From Candidatus Baldrarchaeum yapensis (GTDB lineage: Archaea; Asgardarchaeota; Baldrarchaeia; Baldrarchaeales; Baldrarchaeaceae), in NCBI GenBank assembly GCA_016840465.1, contig JAEOSH010000053.1:1-13875 (forward strand): 13,875 bases of DNA. Reading direction: 5' to 3'. Below, one piece after another: positions 589-13,848 of this stretch. Position numbers and translations under genes: made by a program. Within the stretch, counting starts at the first letter, position 1; each line of letters begins with the position of its first letter. The notes under the pieces are model-generated. The model had not been told where the DNA came from and ran no database searches. It saw only the letters and a program-made list of their open reading frames with translations.

Positions 589-1290
589 TTGGACGCCAGC
601 CTGACAGAAAAGATAGAGGAGTGTCTGGAGTTCTTATATAAGTGCGAGAAGGAAGGAAAGAACATTGTCAGGATGTCGGAGGTATCGAAGGCGTTAGAGA
701 TGTCCCCATCATCGACCACCTCCCTACTTAGGAAAATGGCCGATATGGAGTTGGTACTGTACGAGTCGTACAAGGGCGTAAGACTCACGGAGAAGGGGCG
801 CAAGATTGCCAAGAACGTTGTGAGGAAGCACAGGCTAAGCGAGCGCCTCCTCACCGATTTACTGGGTATGGATTGGGCCGAGGTCCACGAACACGCATGC
901 AGGCTCGAGCATGCGATTTCGGACAAGCTTGCGGACATAATAGAGGAGAAATTGGGATATCCGGAAACGTGTCCTCATGGACATCCGATTTCTGGAGATG
1001 ATCCCCCGGTTCCGGATGTGCCTCTCTCCGAGGTGGAGCCCCCGGCCGAGGTGGAAGTGACAAGAATAATGGACGAGAGCCCCGCATTTCTGAGGAGATT
1101 ATCATCTATCGGGATCTTGCCGGGGTCCGTGATATCCGTGGAGGATCGTGCACCCCTAGGTGGAGCCCTTCTCGTTAGAGTTCTCGACACGGATATTGCG
1201 ATAGGTAAGGATGTCGCCCCCAAGATAAGGGTTAGACTACTGAGGGGAGGGCACAGACACCGCCACAGGCACAGATGGGGGTGGAAGTGA
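589..1290 (+). CDS. dtxR: DtxR/IdeR/MntR-family metal-dependent repressor with C-terminal FeoA/SH3-like domain and (HR)4 tail, 233 aa
   Basis: N-terminal wHTH (VRMSEVSKALEMSPSSTTSLLRKM, YKGVRLTEKG). Metal-site motifs RKHRLSER and HEHACRLEH, and CPHGHPI. FeoA-like C-terminus (RRLSSIGILPGSVISV...IAIGKDVA). TTG start preceded by AAGGGTG. Confidence 0.92.
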   Translation: MDASLTEKIEECLEFLYKCEKEGKNIVRMSEVSKALEMSPSSTTSLLRKMADMELVLYESYKGVRLTEKGRKIAKNVVRKHRLSERLLTDLLGMDWAEVHEHACRLEHAISDKLADIIEEKLGYPETCPHGHPISGDDPPVPDVPLSEVEPPAEVEVTRIMDESPAFLRRLSSIGILPGSVISVEDRAPLGGALLVRVLDTDIAIGKDVAPKIRVRLLRGGHRHRHRHRWGWK

Positions 1291-1295
1291 CACAT

Positions 1296-3251
1296 ATGAG
1301 CGATAGGGTGAGTATTGTTCTTGCAGGGCAGCCCAACACCGGGAAGTCCGTATTCTTCAACAGAATAACGGGAATAGGGGTCATATCATCGAACTATCCC
1401 GGGACCACTGTTGAGATCATGGAGGGATGGACAAAGATCGATGGTCTTCGTGTTAGGGTTATAGACACGCCCGGGATATATTCCCTCGATGCAACATCCC
1501 CCGACCAGATGGTTGCACGCAGGGTGATTCTGGAGACGAGGCCCGCGGTGATCATAAATATCATCGACGCAACGCATCTTGAGCGCAACCTCTACCTTAC
1601 GCTTCAGTTACTGGAGCTGGAGGTGCCGATGGTAGTAGCGCTTAACATGGTCGATGAGGCGTCGAAGCGAGGTATAAAGATAGATCATGAGAAGTTATCG
1701 GAATTTTTGGGCGTCCCGGTGATTCCGACAGTTGCCACGAGAGGAGAAGGAGTTTTTAAGGCCGTGAAGAAGGCGATGGAGTTACTGAAGGAGGGAGCGG
1801 GGGTTAGGGGCAAGAAGCTGGAGTACGGCAAGGACATTGAGAGGGTGATAAGCGCGCTGGAGGAGAAGATAAGGAGGGAGATGAGGGAGATCCCGTTTGG
1901 AATTTCCCCCCGTGCTCTTGCGATACTTCTACTCCAGAGGGACCCGGAGATCGTGAAAATTGTTTCGGAGAAGCATAAGGAGGTCGTGGAGTTTGCGGAG
2001 AAGCTTGCGAGCGCGATTGAGAGCATGCACGGGGAGCAATCGAGTATAAGAATAGCGAAGGAGAGGTATGCGCTTGCCCACATGATAGCGAACTCTGTTG
2101 TTGAGAAGCAGGAGCGGAGGCTGCTCAGGGACGTGATAGATGAGATAACGACGACTAACATTTACACGGGAATTCCGATAATGATGCTGGTGGTGCTCGC
2201 ACTGTTCAGTTCGCTGGTGTACATTGGTGGCATGCTGGAGGAGATTATAACCACGGCGTGGGAGTTGTTCGTGGTGGCGAACGTTGAGGGGATTATAACA
2301 GCGTATGGTGTTGATCCCCTGTTAAGGGTGATTATTCTCAATGGAGTACTGCTAGGGCTGGAGGCGGGGCTCGCTATCGTGATACCGTACATAGTCCTGT
2401 TCTACATACTTCTATCCGTGCTGGAAGACACCGGCTATCTCGCAAGGATCGCGTATCTCCTCGATGGGCTGATGCATCGCCTTGGTTTGCACGGAAGGGC
2501 GCTCATACCTCTCATAGTGGGGTACGGTTGCAACGTACCGGCAATTGTCGGAACAAGAGTACTCGAAACGCGCAGGGAGAGGTTCATCGCCGCGTTTTTG
2601 ATATCAATAGTTCCGTGTTCGGCGAGGACGGTTGTAATACTGGGGATAGTTGGCTCGTACCTGGGCATCATGTACGCGCTGGGGGTTTACGCCATAGGTC
2701 TCCTGTTGCTCGTGATCTCAGGAGTATTCTTAAACAGGATCCTGAGTGGTGAAAGGGTAGGCTTGGTGATGGAAATTCCACCCTACAGGGTGCCCCATCC
2801 GGTCACAGTGCTCAAGAAGACGTGGATAAGGTTCCGGGAGTTCGTGTACATAGCGTTTCCGCTCCTCATCATCGGTAGCATTGTCCTGAGCCTGCTGGAG
2901 TACTTTGAAATGCTGGATGCCGTCACGCGCGCAATGAGTCCCTTGATGGTCACGGTGCTCGGTCTCCCTCCGGTGACGGCGGTGCCGATAATATTCGGAA
3001 TATTCAGGAAAGAGATGGTGATAGAGATGCTCGTTGTCCTATCCGGCACCACCGACCTATCGCTGATATTTACTCCCACGCAGATGATAGTCTTCGCGGT
3101 CGTCACGATGCTGTACTTCCCGTGTATAGCATCTCTCGGAGCTCTCGCGAAGGAATTGGGCTGGAGGGATACGATCCTGATAGCTCTCGGAACAATGGCC
3201 CTCGCGATAACGGTGGGAGCGATACTCAACGTTGCCCTGAGGTGTTTATGA
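1296..3251 (+). CDS. feoB: Ferrous iron transporter FeoB, 651 aa
   Basis: G1 GQPNTGKS, G2 NYPGTTVE, G3 DTPG, G4 NMVD, G5 PTVATRGEG. Membrane domain with GYGCNVPA, PCSAR and YFPCIASL motifs. ATG 1296, 5 nt after the dtxR stop, is preferred over ATG 1275 of the ORF track. Confidence 0.97.
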   Translation: MSDRVSIVLAGQPNTGKSVFFNRITGIGVISSNYPGTTVEIMEGWTKIDGLRVRVIDTPGIYSLDATSPDQMVARRVILETRPAVIINIIDATHLERNLYLTLQLLELEVPMVVALNMVDEASKRGIKIDHEKLSEFLGVPVIPTVATRGEGVFKAVKKAMELLKEGAGVRGKKLEYGKDIERVISALEEKIRREMREIPFGISPRALAILLLQRDPEIVKIVSEKHKEVVEFAEKLASAIESMHGEQSSIRIAKERYALAHMIANSVVEKQERRLLRDVIDEITTTNIYTGIPIMMLVVLALFSSLVYIGGMLEEIITTAWELFVVANVEGIITAYGVDPLLRVIILNGVLLGLEAGLAIVIPYIVLFYILLSVLEDTGYLARIAYLLDGLMHRLGLHGRALIPLIVGYGCNVPAIVGTRVLETRRERFIAAFLISIVPCSARTVVILGIVGSYLGIMYALGVYAIGLLLLVISGVFLNRILSGERVGLVMEIPPYRVPHPVTVLKKTWIRFREFVYIAFPLLIIGSIVLSLLEYFEMLDAVTRAMSPLMVTVLGLPPVTAVPIIFGIFRKEMVIEMLVVLSGTTDLSLIFTPTQMIVFAVVTMLYFPCIASLGALAKELGWRDTILIALGTMALAITVGAILNVALRCL

Positions 3252-6143: not shown

Positions 6144-7364
6144 ATGAGAAGAAGAGAAAACACTAGGACCCCGCGGACGCTGTACGCGGCGGTCTTCTTC
6201 TCCTACTTTTCCTTCGGAACCTACCAGCCCTACATAATAGTGTACGCGGTGGAGATGGGAGCAAGGTACGACGAATTGGGGATCGTGACGTCGGTCGGAA
6301 ACGCATCACCCGCGATCTTTCAACCGCTGTGAGGCATGCTCTCGGACAGACTGGGAAAAAGGAAACCCTTCATTCTGACAGGCTTCCTAATAGGCTCTCT
6401 ACTGCTCTTCCCATTCCCGTTCGTCGATAAACCCCTACTCTACGCCACAATACTCGGAATCCACTTCGTGATGCTCTCCGCGGCTCTTCCAACATGGACC
6501 ACACTCATAGGTAGGCATGTTCCCGAGGAGGCTCGAGGAAGAGGTCTAGGAAAGATAAATGGGATCTCCCTCGGCGCACGGGTGCTTGCAACCCTGCTCT
6601 CAGGAATGGTCATGACCTTTGTCGTGGGAGAAACATTTATAAGGATGTAGTACCGCGTGTTGCTCGCCATAGCGGCGCTTTCAGGAATAATCGCAGATCT
6701 GTCGATAATGTTCTACAAAGAGACGCCCTATACCGATGCCCCGAGCGCTAGATCTTCACCCGTAATGTCCATCATCAGGAATAGTTACTTCAAGAGGTTA
6801 TGGGTCCTAGAGTGCATGTTTTTCTTCGCAATGTCAATCGCATGGCCCTACTTCTCCGTTGTAATGATAAGAAGACTGCACGCGTCGAAATTCGAAATCG
6901 CAATTCAGAGCATGCTCCTCTTCTCCCTTGGCTCCATAATTCAGTTCTTCTTCGGAGGTCTTGCGGACAGGTTCGGAAGAAAACCCGTTCTCGCCGCCTC
7001 AAGAACGGCTCTTCCATCGTATCCCCTCCTCTTCATGCTCGCCACTCACATGGGCTTCATATACGTAGCGGCGGTGATCGCGGGAATATGCAACGGGCTC
7101 TGGATGGTGGCGTCGACGGCGTACATTCTCGATATTACGAGGGAAGAGGAAAGAGCATCGGCATTCGCAGTATTCAACACGGCAATAGGATTCGCCACGT
7201 TCTTCGGAAGCCTGCTGGAAGGACTCCTTGGAGAGTTCTTAACGCAGTTTTATGGCGTGGAAGACGCGCTCATCGCAGTCCTGCTGTTAAGTTTTACCCT
7301 CAAACTAGCATCATCACTGCTTTACGTGACAACCAAAGAAACCAGAACTCCCGGAAGAGGATGA
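6144..7364 (+). pseudogene. MFS transporter (406 codons, about 12 TM) interrupted by two in-frame stops
   Basis: Track ORFs 6144-6332, 6336-6650 and 6657-7364 are all in one frame. Read through, they give FQPL*GMLSDRLGKRKPF (MFS motif A, TGA 6330-6332) and FIRM*YRVLL (TAG 6648-6650). The second motif A copy, GGLADRFGRKPV, is intact. No frameshift. Confidence 0.85.
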
Positions 7365-7385: not shown

Positions 7386-8288
7386 CTAGATTGTGGGCAG
7401 TATCCTGTCCATGATAATAGATCCTATCCTCACCATCTCTTTGGACGCTGGCGAGTTGGGGGAGAACTCGGGCAAGGGAGACGCGTATGCTATTGATCTT
7501 GGAACATCGTCGTCCAGCGGTATTTCTCCTAACAGTTCTATGCCGTTCTCCTTAGAAAACTCGATGAGTTTCTCCCTAAATTTGGGTTCCAAGTCGCATT
7601 TGTTGATTATAAGCCCCGCCGGTATGCCAAAGTGACTGACTACCGCATATATTCTGCTCAGGTCGTGGATAGCAGTAGGCGTTGGTTCCGATACCAGAAT
7701 CACATAATTGGACCCCGCAACCGCCGCTATTGCCGGACAACTCGATCCCGGCGGACCATCTATCAATATGACATTCAATCCCTCCTTAACGGCGATGGAT
7801 CGCGCCTTCATCTTCACAAGAGAAACTATTCTCCCGCTATTGGCACCTCCCACCTTCAGCCTTCCAGTAACGACAAGAAAGCCGTATTTGCTCCTGATGA
7901 CCTCTACGTACGCGTTCTCAACGAGTTTCATCTGAATGGCGCCGACCTCGCAGATGGCCGCACATGCCCCACATCCCTCGCACAGGAAGTCTATGACGAC
8001 TGGTCTATTGTTCTCCGAATCCCAGGCAAGAGCGTCCTCCTTGCAGTACTTGACGCACTCCCCACACCCGTTGCACAGATCATAATTAACTTCGGCAATC
8101 TCAGCCGCCTGTACAGGGTTTGATTCCAGCTTTTCTCCCTCGAGAACCAGTGCCAAATTGGGAGCATCAACATCCGTATCCGCGGATATGAACCTTACCC
8201 CGTTTTTGGAGAAAAGATACGCGAGTGACGCCGTTATCGTGGTCTTACCAACCCCACCCTTCCCGCTTACGACGACTATCTCCTTCAT
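7386..8288 (-). CDS. MinD/ParA-superfamily ATPase with inserted 2x[4Fe-4S] ferredoxin domain (COG1149-like), paralog 2, 300 aa
   Basis: Deviant Walker A SGKGGVGKTT, DTDVDAPNL, ferredoxin motifs CNGCGECVKYC and CEGCGACAAIC, DGPPGSSCP, VSEPTP. ATGA overlap with the upstream paralog. Confidence 0.92.
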   Translation of the reverse strand: MKEIVVVSGKGGVGKTTITASLAYLFSKNGVRFISADTDVDAPNLALVLEGEKLESNPVQAAEIAEVNYDLCNGCGECVKYCKEDALAWDSENNRPVVIDFLCEGCGACAAICEVGAIQMKLVENAYVEVIRSKYGFLVVTGRLKVGGANSGRIVSLVKMKARSIAVKEGLNVILIDGPPGSSCPAIAAVAGSNYVILVSEPTPTAIHDLSRIYAVVSHFGIPAGLIINKCDLEPKFREKLIEFSKENGIELLGEIPLDDDVPRSIAYASPLPEFSPNSPASKEMVRIGSIIMDRILPTI

Positions 8289-9214
8289 AGGTTAAGCAAC
8301 CCCCGTACGGTTTCTCCAAGCCTTACTAGTGCCCTAACCCCAGGAGTATCCACATTTCTGAGAACTGCCGGATATCCCTTAACGTAACTGTACAGGATCT
8401 CCCTGTCAAGCGGAATCTCGGCAATAACCTCACTATCATATTTTTCACAAATCTCACGAACCTTGGCTCCACCGTTTTCTAAAATGTCCGACCTGTTTAT
8501 CACGACCTTCGTTTTAACACCCAGCATCCTCGTGAGTTCCAAGATGAGCCCTAGATCATGCATCCCGAAAGGTGTCGGCTCGGTGACCGCAATTGCAACA
8601 TCCGACCCCCATATTGACCTTATGACGTCACAATGCGTTCCCGGCGCGGTATCTACGATCATGACATCGTAATTTCCATCTTTCAGAACCTCGTACGCTC
8701 TGTCTTTAGTTGCCTTCACCACAACGGCCGAATTCGGCTCCCCTTCTTTCAGCTCCCCAGAAACTATGTCCACGCCGTACGCGCTCCCCGTATAGGTCCA
8801 CCCCACAACCTTCCTCTCCTCCTTGATCGCTCCCGCTGGACAAACAACCTTGCATATTTCGCAACTTTTGCACAAGCTTGCGAAGAAAATAGGCGGCTTG
8901 TCTCCCACCTGCAGGATCGCGTGGGCCCTACAAACACTTACGCACTTTCCGCACCTTACACAAGCCTTCTCGTCGAACGACGGGAGAAAGGATGTCACTT
9001 CTCTCTTTTCCGAGAGAGTTGTGTTCATCAGAATTGCGACGTTGGGGGCACTTACATCGCAGTCTACGATCAGTACCTTCAGACCTTCTCTTGCAAAGTA
9101 CGCGGCGAGATTCACCGCAACCGTGGACTTGCCAGTTCCTCCCTTTCCACCAGTGACACAAACTACCGGAACATCAATATCCTTACTTGCCGCTCCAATG
9201 TGCGTCATGCTCAT
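8285..9214 (-). CDS. MinD/ParA-superfamily ATPase with inserted 2x[4Fe-4S] ferredoxin domain (COG1149-like), paralog 1, about 309 aa
   Basis: TGGKGGTGKST, DCDVSAPN, CVRCGKCVSVC and CKSCEICKVVC, DTAPGTHC, VTEPTPFGMHDL. The ATG abuts the upstream TAG; an alternative ATG is at 9208. Confidence 0.92.
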   Translation of the reverse strand: MSMTHIGAASKDIDVPVVCVTGGKGGTGKSTVAVNLAAYFAREGLKVLIVDCDVSAPNVAILMNTTLSEKREVTSFLPSFDEKACVRCGKCVSVCRAHAILQVGDKPPIFFASLCKSCEICKVVCPAGAIKEERKVVGWTYTGSAYGVDIVSGELKEGEPNSAVVVKATKDRAYEVLKDGNYDVMIVDTAPGTHCDVIRSIWGSDVAIAVTEPTPFGMHDLGLILELTRMLGVKTKVVINRSDILENGGAKVREICEKYDSEVIAEIPLDREILYSYVKGYPAVLRNVDTPGVRALVRLGETVRGLLNL

Positions 9215-9700
9215 CTACCAGTTTCCTGATTGTCCGCCTCCCCATCTGCGCCCTCTTCCGCGTCCCCAGCCCCAGCCACCGCCTCTGCCCATTCCACGCC
9301 CCATTCCCATACCCATGCCCATTCCCATGCCCATACCCGGCCTTGTGGGCGCCGTTATTTGTTGCAACTCGCCGGACAGGTACATCCTTATGACATCCCC
9401 GACCGTTCTGCCAATAACCCCCATATACACTCGGACACCATACTGCTGAAGCGCCATGAAAGCATTTGGGCCTATGTTGCCTGTTATTACAGCGTTTACC
9501 CCCAAACTCAGCACTAGTTGAGCCGCCTCTATTCCCGCACCGCGGGGCGCCGCCATGGCCGTGTTCTGAACTGCTCTGACATCGGTTATTTGGTCCCCGT
9601 CGAGAGTGACCACTATGAAGTACGGGCACCTTCCAAACCTCATATCTACCATTGCATTCAGCCCATCAGGGGACATAGCGCTCACGGCAACCTTCTCCAT
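9215..9700 (-). CDS. NifB/NifX-domain (COG1433; IssA/orange-protein-like) protein with a 40-aa Gly/Met/Arg/Trp tail, 161 aa
   Basis: MEKVAVSA...FGRCPYF...GAGIEAAQ...GNIGPNAF...YLSGEL core. GGGGTGAG RBS before ATG 9700 (the track start at 9736 lies inside the upstream gene). Tail (GM)6GRGMGRGGGWGWGRGRGRRWGGGQSGNW. Confidence 0.9.
   Translation of the reverse strand: MEKVAVSAMSPDGLNAMVDMRFGRCPYFIVVTLDGDQITDVRAVQNTAMAAPRGAGIEAAQLVLSLGVNAVITGNIGPNAFMALQQYGVRVYMGVIGRTVGDVIRMYLSGELQQITAPTRPGMGMGMGMGMGMGRGMGRGGGWGWGRGRGRRWGGGQSGNW
9300..9335 (-). repeat. Six hexamer units encoding (Gly-Met)6
   Basis: Plus strand reads CCCATT CCCATA CCCATG CCCATT CCCATG CCCATA. The variable base is the Gly third codon position. 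Confidence 0.9.
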
Positions 9701-9710
9701 GTGCTCACCC

Positions 9711-10310
9711 CTAATACTCCTCCTCTTCCTCCTCACCCTTCAACTCCTTCAATCTCTTATTTATCCACTCAAGCTGTTGCTTCAGGAACTTCCTTCGCTC
9801 CTCGAGCATTCTTATTTCGGCATCTCTCGAAAGCGATGGCATGGAGGGTTGCATTGGCTGTTGCACAGGCTGCGGAGGCTGCTGCATTTGCATCTGCATC
9901 CTCCAGAACATTCCAGGCTTCATCATCATTCCAGCATGCATGGGAGCCGTGGGTGCGGTCACCGTGCTTAGTTCCCCTCTCAGGTATCGCTGTACGGCTT
10001 CACGCACACTTACACCCATGACTCCCGCTATTACCTTTATGCCGAGCGAACTTAGCGCGGTGAACGCATTCGGGCCAAAGTTTCCCGCTATCACAACGTT
10101 AGCGCCCAGACTTCCGATGAACTGTGCGGCCTGTATACCCGCGCCCATCGGTGCCATCATTGCTGGGTTCTGATGCACACTTACGTTAACGATTTTACCA
10201 TCTTCTACATCGACTACTGTGAATGCGGGGCACCTTCCAAACACAGGAGAAACCATGTCGTCGAGGCCGCCTCGGCTCTGTGAGGCAATTACTATCCTCT
10301 CACGAGGCAT
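9711..10310 (-). CDS. NifB/NifX-domain protein with Met/Gln/Pro-rich linker and C-terminal DUF5320-like coiled coil, 199 aa
   Basis: ERIVIAS...FGRCPAF...GAGIQAAQ...GNFGPNAF...YLRGEL core, linker MQMQMQQPPQPVQQPMQP, and EIRMLEERRKFLKQQLEWINKRLKEL. AGGTGG RBS before ATG 10310 (track start GTG 10319). Confidence 0.88.
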   Translation of the reverse strand: MPRERIVIASQSRGGLDDMVSPVFGRCPAFTVVDVEDGKIVNVSVHQNPAMMAPMGAGIQAAQFIGSLGANVVIAGNFGPNAFTALSSLGIKVIAGVMGVSVREAVQRYLRGELSTVTAPTAPMHAGMMMKPGMFWRMQMQMQQPPQPVQQPMQPSMPSLSRDAEIRMLEERRKFLKQQLEWINKRLKELKGEEEEEEY

Positions 10311-10324
10311 GTTTACCACCTGCG

Positions 10325-10681
10325 CTAGAATCCTCCCTTCAGTTCCTTCAATCTCCTCTCAATCTCCTTTAACTCCCTCTCCAAGAGTTTCTTTTGTTCC
10401 TCGAGGAACTTCTTCTCGTCTTCAACACTGGGTGCCATCATGGGAGCGAATGGCGTGGTTGGTATGCCCCACCATGCCCATTGCGCGGCGGGGTAGCCGA
10501 ATAACTGCCATGCATGTACAATTTGCCCGGATGGTGTCATGTAGTAGGCATTCGGACCGAATCCGCACCTACATGGGCCTATGTAAACGTACCCCCTGCT
10601 TGCCATTGCAGCGATGGCGGGTGACCACCACCACATCCAGCGCCAGCCCCATCCTCGACCACGGCCCCACCACCAGGGCAC
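10325..10681 (-). CDS. Trp/Gly/Arg-rich protein with CxC motif and C-terminal coiled coil (DUF5320-like), about 118 aa
   Basis: MPWWWGRGRGWGWRWMWWW...YIGPCRCGFGPNAYY...EKKFLEEQKKLLERELKEIERRLKEL. GAGGTGA RBS 5 nt before GTG 10681 (alternative ATG 10687). First gene of the operon. Confidence 0.8.
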   Translation of the reverse strand: MPWWWGRGRGWGWRWMWWWSPAIAAMASRGYVYIGPCRCGFGPNAYYMTPSGQIVHAWQLFGYPAAQWAWWGIPTTPFAPMMAPSVEDEKKFLEEQKKLLERELKEIERRLKELKGGF

Positions 10682-10701
10682 GTCCATCACCTCGGTAAAT
10701 T

Positions 10702-10717
10702 TTGTGCATTTGCACAA
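10702..10717. promoter_or_regulatory. Perfect 7-2-7 inverted repeat, candidate operator of the minus-strand operon
   Basis: TTGTGCA-TT-TGCACAA, lying between the putative TATA box and the RBS. Confidence 0.6.
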
Positions 10718-10735
10718 TAACCTACCCCATCCACC

Positions 10736-10750
10736 AATTTATCTTTTGCG
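10736..10750 (-). promoter_or_regulatory. Putative BRE/TATA of the minus-strand operon
   Basis: The minus strand reads CGCAAAAG-ATAAATT, about 55 nt upstream of GTG 10681. The same CGCAAAAG octamer precedes the nik TATA box. Confidence 0.5.
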
Positions 10751-11015
10751 ATTCGGCAGACATCCCGGCATCCCTCCAGACCATCACGACCAAGTAGATG
10801 CCGTGCAAATTTCACGTGCCAGTAATACGGCAAAATCGCTTCGCTTCAAATCGCGCCGAGATGAAGGTGGAAAGATATTGCCAATAGCTTGGCAAAGATT
10901 CGCGTGATCCGCTCGAATAATTATCCATATACGCCTAATAATGCCATGAAGTAAGCATCCCGGTCTGAGGAGTTTTCCCCAACTCCCCTCCCCAGCTACA
11001 ACTCCCAAGTGAGCC

Positions 11016-11039: not shown

Positions 11040-11071
11040 TGGTAACACTTTCATCAAAAATTGTGTTACCA
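11040..11071. promoter_or_regulatory. NikR-type operator
   Basis: TGGTAACAC-N14-GTGTTACCA with perfect 9-bp arms. The core GTAACA-N16-TGTTAC has the 6-16-6 geometry of the E. coli NikR site GTATGA-N16-TCATAC and lies between the TATA box and the RBS. Confidence 0.75.
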
Positions 11072-11081
11072 GGTGGACCTC

Positions 11082-11729
11082 ATGCACATCCCCGACGGGT
11101 ACCTCGACGCCTGGGTCCTAGTACTGTTCTTCGTGCTGACCGCCATAATGTGGATACTTGCCTTTAAGAGGGCAAACTCCGTAATGGAGGAAAGACATAT
11201 TCCCCTATTCGCAGTACTAACGGCTGCGGTGTTTGCAGCCCAGATGATAAACTGGCCGGTCGGACCGGGCGGAACAACTGCACATCTAGTGGGTGGAGCC
11301 CTACTTGCGATATTCCTCGGGCCCTTCGGCGGGCTTATTGCGATGACGGTGATACTGGTCATACAGGCGTTCTTCTTCGGAGATGGGGGAATAACAGCGC
11401 TTGGGGCAAACGTCTGGAACATGGGCGTGGTGGACTGCTTCGTCGGATACTACCTCTTCAAAATTATAAGCAAGTCTCTGGGAGATACCCCCCGTGCGAA
11501 GACCATTGGAGCGTTCGTCGGCGGGTGGATCGGGATAACGCTGGCGGCTTTCTTCTGCGGCCTCCAAATAGGGATATCAACAGTTTTCCCCTACGAGATC
11601 TCGGTTTCGATACCAGTGATGACACTGTACCACTGCCTGCTCGGGCTCATCGAGGGTCTCATCACGGCGCTCGTGATAACATACGTCCTTAAAGTCCGAC
11701 CCGACCTTCTCGAACTCCCCAAGATATAG
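11082..11729 (+). CDS. nikM: ECF-type Ni/Co transporter substrate-binding (S) component, NikM/CbiM family, 215 aa
   Basis: N-terminus MHIPDGYL (His2 metal ligand), TTAHLVGG, ALGANVWNMG, YHCLLGLIEGLIT. AGGTGG RBS at 11071-11076, so the start is moved from 11061 to 11082. Confidence 0.93.
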   Translation: MHIPDGYLDAWVLVLFFVLTAIMWILAFKRANSVMEERHIPLFAVLTAAVFAAQMINWPVGPGGTTAHLVGGALLAIFLGPFGGLIAMTVILVIQAFFFGDGGITALGANVWNMGVVDCFVGYYLFKIISKSLGDTPRAKTIGAFVGGWIGITLAAFFCGLQIGISTVFPYEISVSIPVMTLYHCLLGLIEGLITALVITYVLKVRPDLLELPKI

Positions 11730-11732
11730 GGG

Positions 11733-12041
11733 GTGGTGAAAATTAGCGACGTGTTTGTGACACTTAAGCAACGGTGGGTGATTGCAGTAATAGTGGTCTC
11801 GATAGTGCTGGTGTTGCTGAGCCCCCTCTTTGCATATGCCTATGAGCCTCTGGACGTGGTTGCGGAGAAATACGGCGCCGAGGAAAGCGCAATTTTTGAA
11901 GCCCCCATGCCTGACTACATACTGCCGCCTTTAGGGGAAACAGAAATCAGCGGAATCCTTGCCGGCCTGATAGGTGTGTTCATAGTACTGGCGGTGTCTC
12001 TGGCGCTTGGATACGCATTGGTGCGTCCCCGCAAACAATAA
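11733..12041 (+). CDS. nikN: NikN-like / PDGLE-domain small membrane component, about 102 aa
   Basis: Two hydrophobic helices flanking EPLDVVAE...FEAPMPDY, located between nikM and nikQ. The exact GTG start is uncertain. Confidence 0.8.
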   Translation: MVKISDVFVTLKQRWVIAVIVVSIVLVLLSPLFAYAYEPLDVVAEKYGAEESAIFEAPMPDYILPPLGETEISGILAGLIGVFIVLAVSLALGYALVRPRKQ

Positions 12042-12068
12042 TTCCTTATTTTTGATTTGGTGATGGCC

Positions 12069-12926
12069 ATGGGGCTCAGAAGAATGGTGCACCTCTCAGT
12101 CAGAGAGGTTCTGCAGAAGTTCAGAGATGTCATGTTCCAAGACAGAATCGCCCGGCGGGAGGGACTCCTACAGAGCATAGATCCACGAGCAAAGATAGTT
12201 GTGATAGTCGCACTGATCTTCACGGCCGTGTTCCTAAAAAAGATAGTGACGCTGGTGGCGATTCTCTTCCTCGCCGTCCTCCTCGCCATGCTTTCGAAAA
12301 TAAGTCTGAGATTCTTTCTCCTCCGCACCTTCGTTTTCATCCCGCTGTTCAGCGCGGTAATCGCAATCCCACTTCCCTTCATTGTCGGGGGAGAAACTAT
12401 CACGTCCATTGCCCTAGGCGGGATTCTGATAAGGGTCTCACGAGAGGGCCTCCTGCAAATGGTGCAATTCATTCTTAGAGTGTGGGTCTGCGTGTCACTT
12501 TCGGTGCTCCTAGTACTAACGACCACATGGCCCAAACTCATGCATGCGTTGGCGAGAATGCGAGTGCCGCGGGTGTTCGTGCTAATCGCAGATATGACAT
12601 ACCGCTATCTTTTTTACTTTGCCGATATGCTTTACAAAATGCTCCTAGCTAGGGAGAGCAGACTGACCGGGCCTATCGGAATGATGGACACCATGAAGAC
12701 CGGGGCATCCGCCGTGGGAGCGCTACTGGTCAGGGCATACGAGCACGGGGAGAGAGTTTACCTTGCGATGAAGTCGAGGGGCTTTTGCGGAAGCATAGAG
12801 ATATTGGATAACCTGACCCTCAGACCCCGAGACATAACGTTTATGATACTCCTCATACTTTCGATTATCCCGTTAATACTCGTGGAGGTCCACGCGCTAC
12901 CCCTGCCCTCCCATCTCCTGATATAG
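12069..12926 (+). CDS. nikQ: ECF transporter transmembrane (T) component NikQ/CbiQ, about 285 aa
   Basis: LQSIDPRAKI, MTYRYLFYF, ARESR and RAYEHGERVYLAMKSRGF motifs. GGTGA RBS favours ATG 12069 (alternatives 12057, 12063, 12084). Confidence 0.92.
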   Translation: MGLRRMVHLSVREVLQKFRDVMFQDRIARREGLLQSIDPRAKIVVIVALIFTAVFLKKIVTLVAILFLAVLLAMLSKISLRFFLLRTFVFIPLFSAVIAIPLPFIVGGETITSIALGGILIRVSREGLLQMVQFILRVWVCVSLSVLLVLTTTWPKLMHALARMRVPRVFVLIADMTYRYLFYFADMLYKMLLARESRLTGPIGMMDTMKTGASAVGALLVRAYEHGERVYLAMKSRGFCGSIEILDNLTLRPRDITFMILLILSIIPLILVEVHALPLPSHLLI

Positions 12927-12936
12927 GTGAAAACGC

Positions 12937-13848
12937 TTGCGCTCGACGCTCTTCGAACTCAGGGGCGTGTCCTACACGTATACCAACGGGACCGTGGCGC
13001 TGGAGAACGTCACATTCAAGATCTTTGAGGGGGAAAATGTAGCGATCCTCGGGCCGAACGGCGGGGGGAAGTCAACCCTACTCATGATAATGGACGGGCT
13101 CTTGGAACCCACCGAGGGAGAGGTCTACTTCAGGGGGCGCAAAGTGGACCCCAAGGACGAAAAGTTCATGTTCGAAATGCGGAAGCGGGTGGGTATGGTC
13201 TTTCAGGATCCGGACGTTGCCCTCTTTTCTTCCACGGTATGGGAGGACATAATCTTCGGTCCCCTCCACATGAGGCTCCCAAGGGAGGAGGTCATAAGAA
13301 GGGGGGAGTGGGCCCTCCGCACCTTGGGAATAGAGCACCTCAAAGATAGGCCCCCGTTCCAGCTCAGTGAGGGGGAAAAGAAAAAGGCGGCGATCGCATC
13401 CGTTCTCTCGATAGACCCTGAGGTTTTATTGCTGGACGAGCCCTTCATAAACTTGGATCTGAGATCTCAGGAACGGTTGCTGGCGCTGCTGAGGGAAATG
13501 TCGAGGAGCGGCAAGACACTCATACTCGCAACACATGACGTGAACATCGTGCCGCTTCTCGCCGACCGCGTCATTCTGCTCAATAAAACTGTCATAGCTG
13601 ATGGCTCGGTTCGCGAAATATTTTCTAGACCCGAGTTGCTGAAGTCCGCAAACATAAGACCGCCTTTAGTTGCAGTGCTCTTCACAGAGTTGATGAAAAG
13701 AAATTTGGTGGGGGACGGAGTAAGGGTTCCGCTGACTGTGGAGGAGGCCGTCTCTGCTATAGTTAAGATGTTCGACTCAAAGGATAAGATAACCAAACGC
13801 TCCTCCCCGGGGCGGTTTTCAGGACTGCAGGATGATTCTGAACACTGA
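12937..13848 (+). CDS. nikO: ECF transporter ATPase NikO/CbiO, 303 aa
   Basis: Walker A GPNGGGKST, Q-loop VFQDPD, signature LSEGEKKK, Walker B LLLDEP, H-loop ATHD. AGGTGA RBS before the TTG start. Confidence 0.95.
   Translation: MRSTLFELRGVSYTYTNGTVALENVTFKIFEGENVAILGPNGGGKSTLLMIMDGLLEPTEGEVYFRGRKVDPKDEKFMFEMRKRVGMVFQDPDVALFSSTVWEDIIFGPLHMRLPREEVIRRGEWALRTLGIEHLKDRPPFQLSEGEKKKAAIASVLSIDPEVLLLDEPFINLDLRSQERLLALLREMSRSGKTLILATHDVNIVPLLADRVILLNKTVIADGSVREIFSRPELLKSANIRPPLVAVLFTELMKRNLVGDGVRVPLTVEEAVSAIVKMFDSKDKITKRSSPGRFSGLQDDSEH

Follow-up and report, generated by a model that had tools for sequence, protein, structure and literature searches.

What the gene clusters built around the orange protein (ORP) do for their hosts has been an open question since the Desulfovibrio cluster was described; such clusters are widespread in anaerobic archaea and bacteria, and IssA of Pyrococcus furiosus is the only relative with a demonstrated role. 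Considered here is an operon of five minus-strand genes (A, B, C, ATPase 1 and ATPase 2) at positions 7386-10681 of a 13,875-bp stretch of Candidatus Baldrarchaeum yapensis DNA. This stretch, hereafter the window, is a complete contig of a metagenome-assembled genome (MAG) of 2.27 Mb and 96% completeness that was recovered from hydrothermal sediment and assigned to a Baldrarchaeia-order Asgard archaeon. Matching DNA occurs in hydrothermal-vent, sediment and seawater metagenomes, and no RNA datasets are listed for it. An earlier reading, made from the nucleotide sequence with no database searches (the sequence-only reading), had proposed that the window holds a tightly coupled, ORP/IssA-like operon with two Fe-S ATPases and three small proteins that share modules in pairs.

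Judged by its sequence, the operon is a real five-gene ORP/IssA-type iron-sulfur unit of an Asgard archaeon, and with slightly more confidence than doubt we regard the locus as an archaeal form of the ORP/IssA cluster of anaerobes, most likely holding and passing on inorganic iron-sulfide material. The proposed coupling is borne out: the open reading frames (ORFs) lie on the minus strand as proposed, with 14 nt between A and B and 10 nt between B and C, the start of ATPase 1 abuts the stop of C (0 nt), and the two ATPase ORFs overlap by 4 nt. Shine-Dalgarno-like GGAGG/GGTGA motifs stand upstream of A, B and C. The genes and their modules are as follows.

10325..10681, minus strand: gene A, a 118-aa DUF5320-family protein (Pfam PF17253) of the rare 'GY.YIGPCRCGFGPNA' subtype
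10616..10681, minus strand: A residues 1-22, Trp/Gly/Arg head (9 W, 4 G, 3 R; isoelectric point (pI) 12)
10565..10573, minus strand: A Cys37-Arg-Cys39, turn of a beta-hairpin predicted in the AlphaFold2 (AF2) model
10328..10429, minus strand: A residues 85-118, leucine zipper with core L/L/L/I/L/L
9942..10310, minus strand: B residues 1-123, NifX-like (Nitro_FeMo-Co) domain (PF02579, 80.7 bits; AF2 predicted local distance difference test (pLDDT) 93-98)
9831..9941, minus strand: B residues 124-160, linker that is Met/Gln/Pro-rich by composition and disordered (pLDDT 47-56)
9714..9830, minus strand: B residues 161-199, leucine zipper homologous to that of A, then an acidic end (C-terminal half of PF17253)
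9338..9700, minus strand: C residues 1-121, NifX-like domain (PF02579, 83.8 bits; 50% identical to that of B)
9218..9337, minus strand: C residues 122-161, IssA-like cationic tail (20 G, 7 M, 6 R, 4 W; pI 12)
8285..9214, minus strand: ATPase 1, MinD/ParA-type with an inserted 2x[4Fe-4S] ferredoxin domain, Orp3/Orp4-like
7386..8288, minus strand: ATPase 2, paralogue of ATPase 1 with the same architecture

The relationship to IssA is carried by protein C. Both B (199 aa) and C (161 aa) open with a domain that exceeds the PF02579 (IPR003731) cut-off of 26.3 bits, and each has a single Cys, which in C lies inside the domain (FGRCP). The nearest solved structures to C are MTH1175 (1eo1), which is the closer, and the Desulfovibrio gigas ORP (2wfb, E = 1e-16); the NifX domain sequence also matches the TM1290 structure. 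In IssA (PF2025) the IPR003731 domain binds Fe and S, and a W/G/R-rich tail is proposed to wrap anionic thioferrate; the protein binds thioferrate, forms nanoparticles of ~20 nm and is induced when sulfur and iron are abundant (PMC5524996). C likewise combines an N-terminal IPR003731/NifX-like domain with a disordered, strongly cationic Gly/Arg/Trp tail, which begins with GM repeats and has the high pI and the cationic, Gly- and aromatic-rich C-terminal character by which IssA is recognized. The setting differs from that of IssA in that the protein with the tail, C, is one of several partners: a NifX paralogue with a zipper, DUF5320 proteins and the ATPase pair accompany it. At the DNA level, the segment encoding the C tail (9218-9337) carries dense GGG tracts on the coding strand and could therefore form G-quadruplexes.

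The relationship to the ORP complexes is carried by the ATPases and by the arrangement of the genes. ATPase 1 and ATPase 2 (309 and 300 aa, 29% identical to each other) each match the CbiA/ParA and Fer4 families, and their P-loops match archaeal MinD, NifH and Mrp structures; the structure search found no solved structure with a ferredoxin insert in such an ATPase. The sequence-only reading had called them Fe-S ATPases, and this is supported by a deviant Walker A motif (KGGxGK[ST]; GKGGTGKST in ATPase 1, GKGGVGKTT in ATPase 2) and two CxxCxxCxxxC ferredoxin motifs in each. Two paralogous MinD-type ATPases with two [4Fe-4S] motifs each are also found in the ORP system of Desulfovibrio vulgaris Hildenborough (Orp3, Orp4, Orp5, Orp8, Orp9/MrpORP), where Orp3, Orp4 and Orp8 are purified together and acquire Fe-S clusters from MrpORP, whose Di-Nase domain binds a [3Fe-4S] cluster (PMC6345978). 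Further points of likeness are the single-domain NifX-like proteins B and C (compare Orp5 and Orp8) encoded directly upstream of the ATPases in one operon, and the presence of an Mrp/NBP35 partner in the genome. NifX domains with MTH1175 and the D. gigas orange protein as nearest matches, the IssA-type tail and the Orp3/Orp4-like ATPase pair together uphold the ORP/IssA-like label given to the operon beforehand.

The Asgard locus also departs from the Desulfovibrio system in several respects. The window has no Orp9-type gene fusing Mrp/NBP35 to NifX, and scores against the NCBIfam MrpORP model fall far below its cut-off; instead, what look like the split halves of Orp9/MrpORP, a NifX gene and an Mrp gene, are found on another contig (C68) behind the same operator as the operon. 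The divergent operons of D. vulgaris depend on sigma54 and OrpR, whereas here a TATA-like box and a palindromic operator are found and the window holds no gene for an enhancer-binding protein. The accessible papers on the ORP complex mention no zippers, G/R/W modules or DUF5320 partners, and nothing useful was found in the literature on COG1149 and COG1433.

Protein A is the least familiar member of the operon. Its gene starts with GTG (an alternative ATG lies at 10687), and 13 of its 118 residues are Trp, compared with 1.1% in the long ORFs of the genome. It matches PF17253 with 36.7 bits (gathering cut-off 27), over profile positions 50-99 only, that is, through the C-terminal half of DUF5320; the usual DUF5320 head (MPRGDGTGP...GYC, as in loci L012 and L013) is replaced in A-type proteins by the conserved GY.YIGPCRCGFGPNA hairpin. 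The AF2 model shows a beta-hairpin core (residues 32-56, pLDDT 71-81), a disordered linker of Pro, Ala and Trp between the CxC core and the C-terminal helix, and that helix itself (86-115, pLDDT 85-90). A Foldseek comparison of the model with the PDB gave nothing at E <= 0.001, and a PDB profile search with the A1 alignment returned generic coiled coils only (E > 0.1). An origin of the core (CGFGPNAY) from the NifX motif GNFGPNAF was considered and rejected, as the BLAST match covers 6 residues only and hhalign aligns the zipper alone.

The A-type subfamily is small. Among 1.84 billion representatives it accounts for 115 clusters (50% identity), and it has members in 39 of ~186,000 species genomes (GTDB). 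Its hosts are scattered over Asgard archaea, Thermoproteota, Bathyarchaeia, methanogens, Aquificota, Zixibacteria, Aminicenantes and others. Of 123 members compared, 109 have the CxC motif and 122 have at least one Cys; 101 carry a coil-like segment at the C terminus and 84 a basic aromatic/Gly/Arg segment at the N terminus. In two methanogen proteins (L046:5776-6186 and P0339) the Trp/Gly/Arg segment is placed after the CxC core, and because its position varies in this way among A-type proteins, the low-complexity segment acts as a movable module. Three others (P0319, P0324, P0330) have a zinc ribbon between core and zipper. An Asgardarchaeia MAG carries, between the gene for a second type of DUF5320 zipper protein (DUF5320b) and a NifX-zipper gene, a 64-aa ORF (L011:5785-5979) that starts with MWWGRGGRG and is extremely rich in Tyr, Pro, Phe and Trp; this may be another aromatic miniprotein of the system.

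The sequence-only reading held that each pair of the small proteins shares one module, and the claim stands for two pairs of the three. The zippers of A and B are identical at 16 of 32 positions (E = 2e-7), and their family profiles align with 97% probability (hhalign, E = 3e-11) over the coil only. The cores of B and C are identical at 60 of 120 positions with no gaps (E = 2e-39), exactly as had been counted by hand. A and C give no BLAST alignment and have composition alone in common (WGRGRGWGW in A, WGWGRGRG in C). The domain searches that had been proposed as a check assign A to DUF5320, B and C to the NifX-like family, and the tail of B to the C-terminal half of DUF5320, the last with a borderline score relative to the cut-off of 27 (26.6 bits by hmmscan, 27.4 when the genome was scanned); PF17253 is annotated on the database copy of B, and the AF2 model of B has a zipper helix at 162-197 (pLDDT ~90) after a disordered linker at 121-160. 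A homologous zipper is present on DUF5320b, which is encoded elsewhere in the genome; A, B and DUF5320b have the same residues at the zipper core positions, which makes a mixed assembly sterically plausible. For parallel, in-register zippers, the g/e' charge count in the window is -3 for A-B and -6 for both A-A and B-B; all three pairings score equally (-4) in the related loci L009 and L017, and L018 differs again. A complex prediction of full-length A with B, with alignments for both, scored 0.29 against a mark of 0.32, as a single prediction run without controls. The sequence-only reading had further suggested that A-B, B-C and A-C contacts could close into a network and give a particle or condensate; this stays a conjecture, and A and C have no module that can be aligned.

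Comparison with relatives places this division of modules in context. The design of B is widespread: about half of the listed B/C relatives carry PF02579 together with PF17253 (annotated only as 'NifB/NifX family molybdenum-iron cluster-binding protein'), and they occur in Asgard archaea, Hadarchaeia, Bathyarchaeia, Methanomicrobia, Thermoplasmata, Bipolaricaulota and Aminicenantes. B, with its NifX domain, disordered linker and DUF5320 zipper, is a member of this group of fusions. By a simple count, a G/R stretch follows the NifX domain in 184 of 231 relatives, at least 146 of which also have a coil, and some have a zinc ribbon instead. The family consensus runs from NifX through GxGxGRGxGRGM and a Pro-rich stretch to the zipper; the usual state is therefore one protein with all three modules, beside a free DUF5320 protein. 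In the window lineage the stretch that the fusions carry between domain and zipper (GxGRGxGRGM) is gone from B, whose linker holds 10 Met in 37 residues in its place, and is present on the zipper-less paralogue C. The sequence-only reading knew of no description of the three-way architecture; the modules are indeed split over separate proteins, but the design itself is not new, and the split is a lineage-specific redistribution of a very common one.

The redistribution is shared, with gene order unchanged, by at least six or seven archaeal MAGs. The order A, B (with zipper), C (with tail), ATPase, ATPase is found in L009, L017, L018, L020 and L021, and likewise in L016 and L019, which are cut by contig ends; these loci come from MAGs labelled Baldrarchaeota and Odinarchaeota. 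Where sequence is present, the orthologous C proteins retain tails ending in GRGMGRG...W, and B retains its zipper intact. Loss of tails and coils from homologous operons had been named as an outcome that would count against the earlier proposal; both are conserved in the window, L009, L016/17, L018, L020 and L021. The modules are thus more than chance, since all are conserved at the protein level in orthologous operons. The same-order loci also carry a divergent dtxR gene and a DUF5320b with a MYYLTGLPGW head. Across the 39 A-type loci, A has a NifX gene as neighbour in 27 and a DUF134 gene in 16.

How the operon might be controlled is suggested by its promoter, where an alignment of promoters revealed a palindrome ~20 nt before the A start codon.

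10702..10717, no strand: 16-bp perfect palindrome TTGTGCATTTGCACAA (TTGTGCAwwTGCACAA), candidate operator at the site where transcription of the operon is predicted to start
10736..10747, minus strand: putative TATA-like/BRE-like (B recognition element) sequence AAAAGATAAATT (coding strand), read from the sequence, 26 nt upstream of the palindrome

The spacing between the TTTATATT box and the palindrome is also 26 nt in L009 and L017. By chance, 0.03 matches to the palindrome would be expected in the window, and its only perfect match in the 2.27-Mb genome is the one described here. The sole site with one mismatch precedes DUF5320b (C68:19373), and one of eight sites with two mismatches precedes the NifX-Mrp pair (C68:22350), so that each of the genome's three best matches stands before a DUF5320 or NifX gene. 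Two-mismatch copies also lie directly upstream of a gene for a 311-aa metallo-beta-lactamase-fold protein, a type known in ORP clusters, and one for a 101-aa FeS_assembly_P (SufT/DUF59-like) protein, at C12:63033 and C52:29954 (L055, L056); these genes may also belong to the regulon. With the reversed sequence as control, four two-mismatch sites and none better were obtained, and about half of the two-mismatch sites are expected by chance. The contig with the one-mismatch site holds a second ORP-type locus (C68:19373-23700; L003, L006, L057) consisting of the box, DUF5320b (WWGGGRGRGG head, zipper as in A and B), a 131-aa DtxR-family protein and the genome's only DUF134 gene (C68:20217-20489), then a further box, a 140-aa NifX-like gene and a 299-aa Mrp/NBP35 ATPase with CPHC.

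A 14-bp core of the palindrome (at most one mismatch) stands before genes for A-type, DUF5320b and DUF134 proteins in L009-L011, L016, L017, L019, L022, L033, L036 and L037, and three bacterial loci (L045, L051, L053) have a variant, TGAGCATATGCTCA, ahead of DUF134 and NifX genes. DtxR was considered as the binder, as dtxR adjoins DUF5320b in several loci; DUF134 is the more likely binder, since loci that lack dtxR still have the box in front of their DUF134 genes (L022 and L036, and with the variant L045, L051 and L053). The single DUF134 regulator of the genome probably represses the set at the palindrome. The candidate operator and its small regulon, which are new in this analysis, connect DUF134, DUF5320, NifX-like, Mrp, metallo-beta-lactamase-fold and SufT-like genes. 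Together with the clean three-way split of modules and the rare CxC-hairpin subtype of DUF5320, they are what the window adds to the picture of ORP-type clusters.

Given that the IssA domain binds Fe and S, that its tail is proposed to wrap thioferrate and that Orp3, Orp4 and Orp8 are supplied with clusters by MrpORP, the operon most likely builds a multivalent iron-sulfide scaffold with the ATPases as loader or unloader. Anionic Fe-S species would be bound non-covalently by the NifX domains, as shown for IssA and the orange protein, and would be neutralized and wrapped by the cationic aromatic segments, as proposed for the IssA tail. The zippers would join A, B and DUF5320b into homo- or hetero-oligomers, which would make the binding domains and tails multivalent. 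The two ATPases may form an ATP-dependent dimer and provide low-potential electrons, or else conformational work, for loading or release, and the DUF134 regulator would repress the set at the palindrome. A link to iron is supported by the DtxR-FeoA and FeoB genes of the window, by Feo/DtxR genes in relatives (including L012, L013, L018 and L020), and by the joint rise of IssA homologues with FeoB and DtxR in Methanococcus voltae (PMC8516115). The locus also ties the uncharacterized DUF5320 family to IssA-type tails.

In its most ambitious form, the scaffold proposal would have A, B, C and DUF5320b co-assemble, through the promiscuous zipper and the cationic Trp/Gly/Arg segments, into a matrix (particle or condensate) around a thioferrate-like polymer, with the ferredoxin-ATPase pair loading or reductively unloading it and DUF134 switching the set at its dedicated operator. 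We consider this rather improbable and put it forward tentatively. If true, the matrix would be an Fe-S storage body made of separable modules, would give a function to the ORP cluster and to DUF5320 and DUF134, both large families with none assigned, and would account for the buffering of iron and sulfide by anaerobes that do not use ferritin chemistry for it. With the binding domain, the cationic tail, the zipper and the Cys hairpin distributed over separate small proteins, the system lends itself readily to deletion and mixing experiments.

Several observations weigh against an iron-sulfide scaffold. The tail of C is shorter than that of IssA (~40 residues, compared with 70) and lacks both its Pro-rich part and Cys, and the likeness to the P. 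furiosus protein is read from the domain of B and C and the tail composition of C. The function of the Desulfovibrio ORP complex is itself unknown (PMC6345978), and the DUF5320 literature search found no paper on the function of the family and no experiment on any DUF5320 protein or on this organism. The simple g/e' count shows no conserved sign of a preference for A-B hetero-pairing. That the cargo is iron-sulfide, and not another metal sulfide or ordinary clusters, is suggested by the relatives only. IssA is made in iron and sulfide excess, whereas a repressor-type box in a Feo/DtxR neighbourhood could mean induction under iron shortage, in which case trafficking fits better than storage.

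This last point leads to the first of the competing explanations, in which the operon encodes dedicated Fe-S carrier and maturation machinery and not a store. Zipper-dimerized A would bridge a [2Fe-2S] or [4Fe-4S] cluster through two CxC hairpins, the NifX domains would carry ordinary clusters, and the ATPases, with the Mrp protein encoded elsewhere, would insert clusters into client enzymes. Induction under iron shortage would suit such a role, as do the high frequency of CxC in A-type proteins at a hairpin tip beside a dimerizing helix, the MrpORP precedent with its [3Fe-4S]-binding domain and its transfer of clusters to Orp3 and Orp4, and the box upstream of the SufT-like gene and the NifX-Mrp pair. 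The cationic G/R/W stretches, however, resemble the IssA tail and are hard to square with discrete clusters, B and C have one Cys each, and in several A orthologues the second Cys of CxC is replaced by Ser (C37 is invariant in the A1 alignment). On balance we regard carriage of discrete clusters as unlikely, while taking it seriously.

The other explanation of comparable standing, to which we likewise give a minor share of belief, is that the shared modules reflect common descent and domain shuffling, with homo-oligomeric zipper proteins and no A-B-C network, particle or condensate. No hetero-contact is needed, because most lineages hold all three modules in one polypeptide; in L009 and L017 the A-B pairing gains nothing over A-A or B-B in the g/e' count, and A and C are linked by composition alone. 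Shuffling by itself accounts less readily for the free DUF5320 protein with the same zipper that is kept beside the NifX-zipper fusion in very many genomes, for the identity of the A, B and DUF5320b zipper cores, and for the translational coupling, which suggests matched stoichiometry.

It is very unlikely that the system binds or stores a heterometal thiometallate (Mo/W-Cu-S) in the manner of the Desulfovibrio orange protein, with soft metals held in part by the Met-rich stretches. This reading draws on the match of C to the D. gigas ORP, on the Met residues of the B linker and the GM repeats that open the C tail, and on the [S2MoS2CuS2MoS2] cluster bound by Orp8 (PMC6345978); MTH1175 is nevertheless the closer match, and the neighbourhood and regulon (Feo, DtxR, Mrp, FeS_assembly_P) relate to iron and not to Mo, W or Cu. 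Hardly credible is a primary role of the RG-rich small proteins in binding nucleic acid such as G-quadruplexes, or of the MinD-like ATPases in cell division or positioning with a secondary link to metal, for although Methanosarcina mazei DUF134 and DUF5320 proteins are listed with an RG-rich motif like those that bind G-quadruplexes (PMC7565180) and the ORP complex has been called 'putatively involved in cell division' (PMC6345978), all conserved neighbours are metal or Fe-S proteins, the ATPases carry ferredoxin inserts and no nucleic-acid enzyme is linked to the cluster.

Iron-related and other transport genes flank the operon in the window.

589-1290: DtxR-FeoA fusion gene
1275-3251: feoB
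11061-13848: cbiMNQO transporter

Upstream of the DtxR-FeoA fusion gene and feoB, positions 505-550 hold a TATA-like sequence, GTTTAAATAT, and a CATGT-N7-ACATG palindrome, which differs from the ORP box and is perhaps the iron box of the window's DtxR. A perfect 9-nt inverted repeat, TGGTAACAC-N14-GTGTTACCA, overlaps the cbiM start (11040-11071); it resembles NikR-type operators, in which case cbiMNQO would presumably be a nickel importer. The intergenic region between A and cbiM also contains an imperfect 20-nt palindrome (10799-10832, 70% complementary). On the plus strand at 6144-7364, the frame of a major facilitator superfamily transporter is interrupted in frame by a TGA (6330-6332) and a TAG (6648-6650) stop and is probably a pseudogene or an assembly error.

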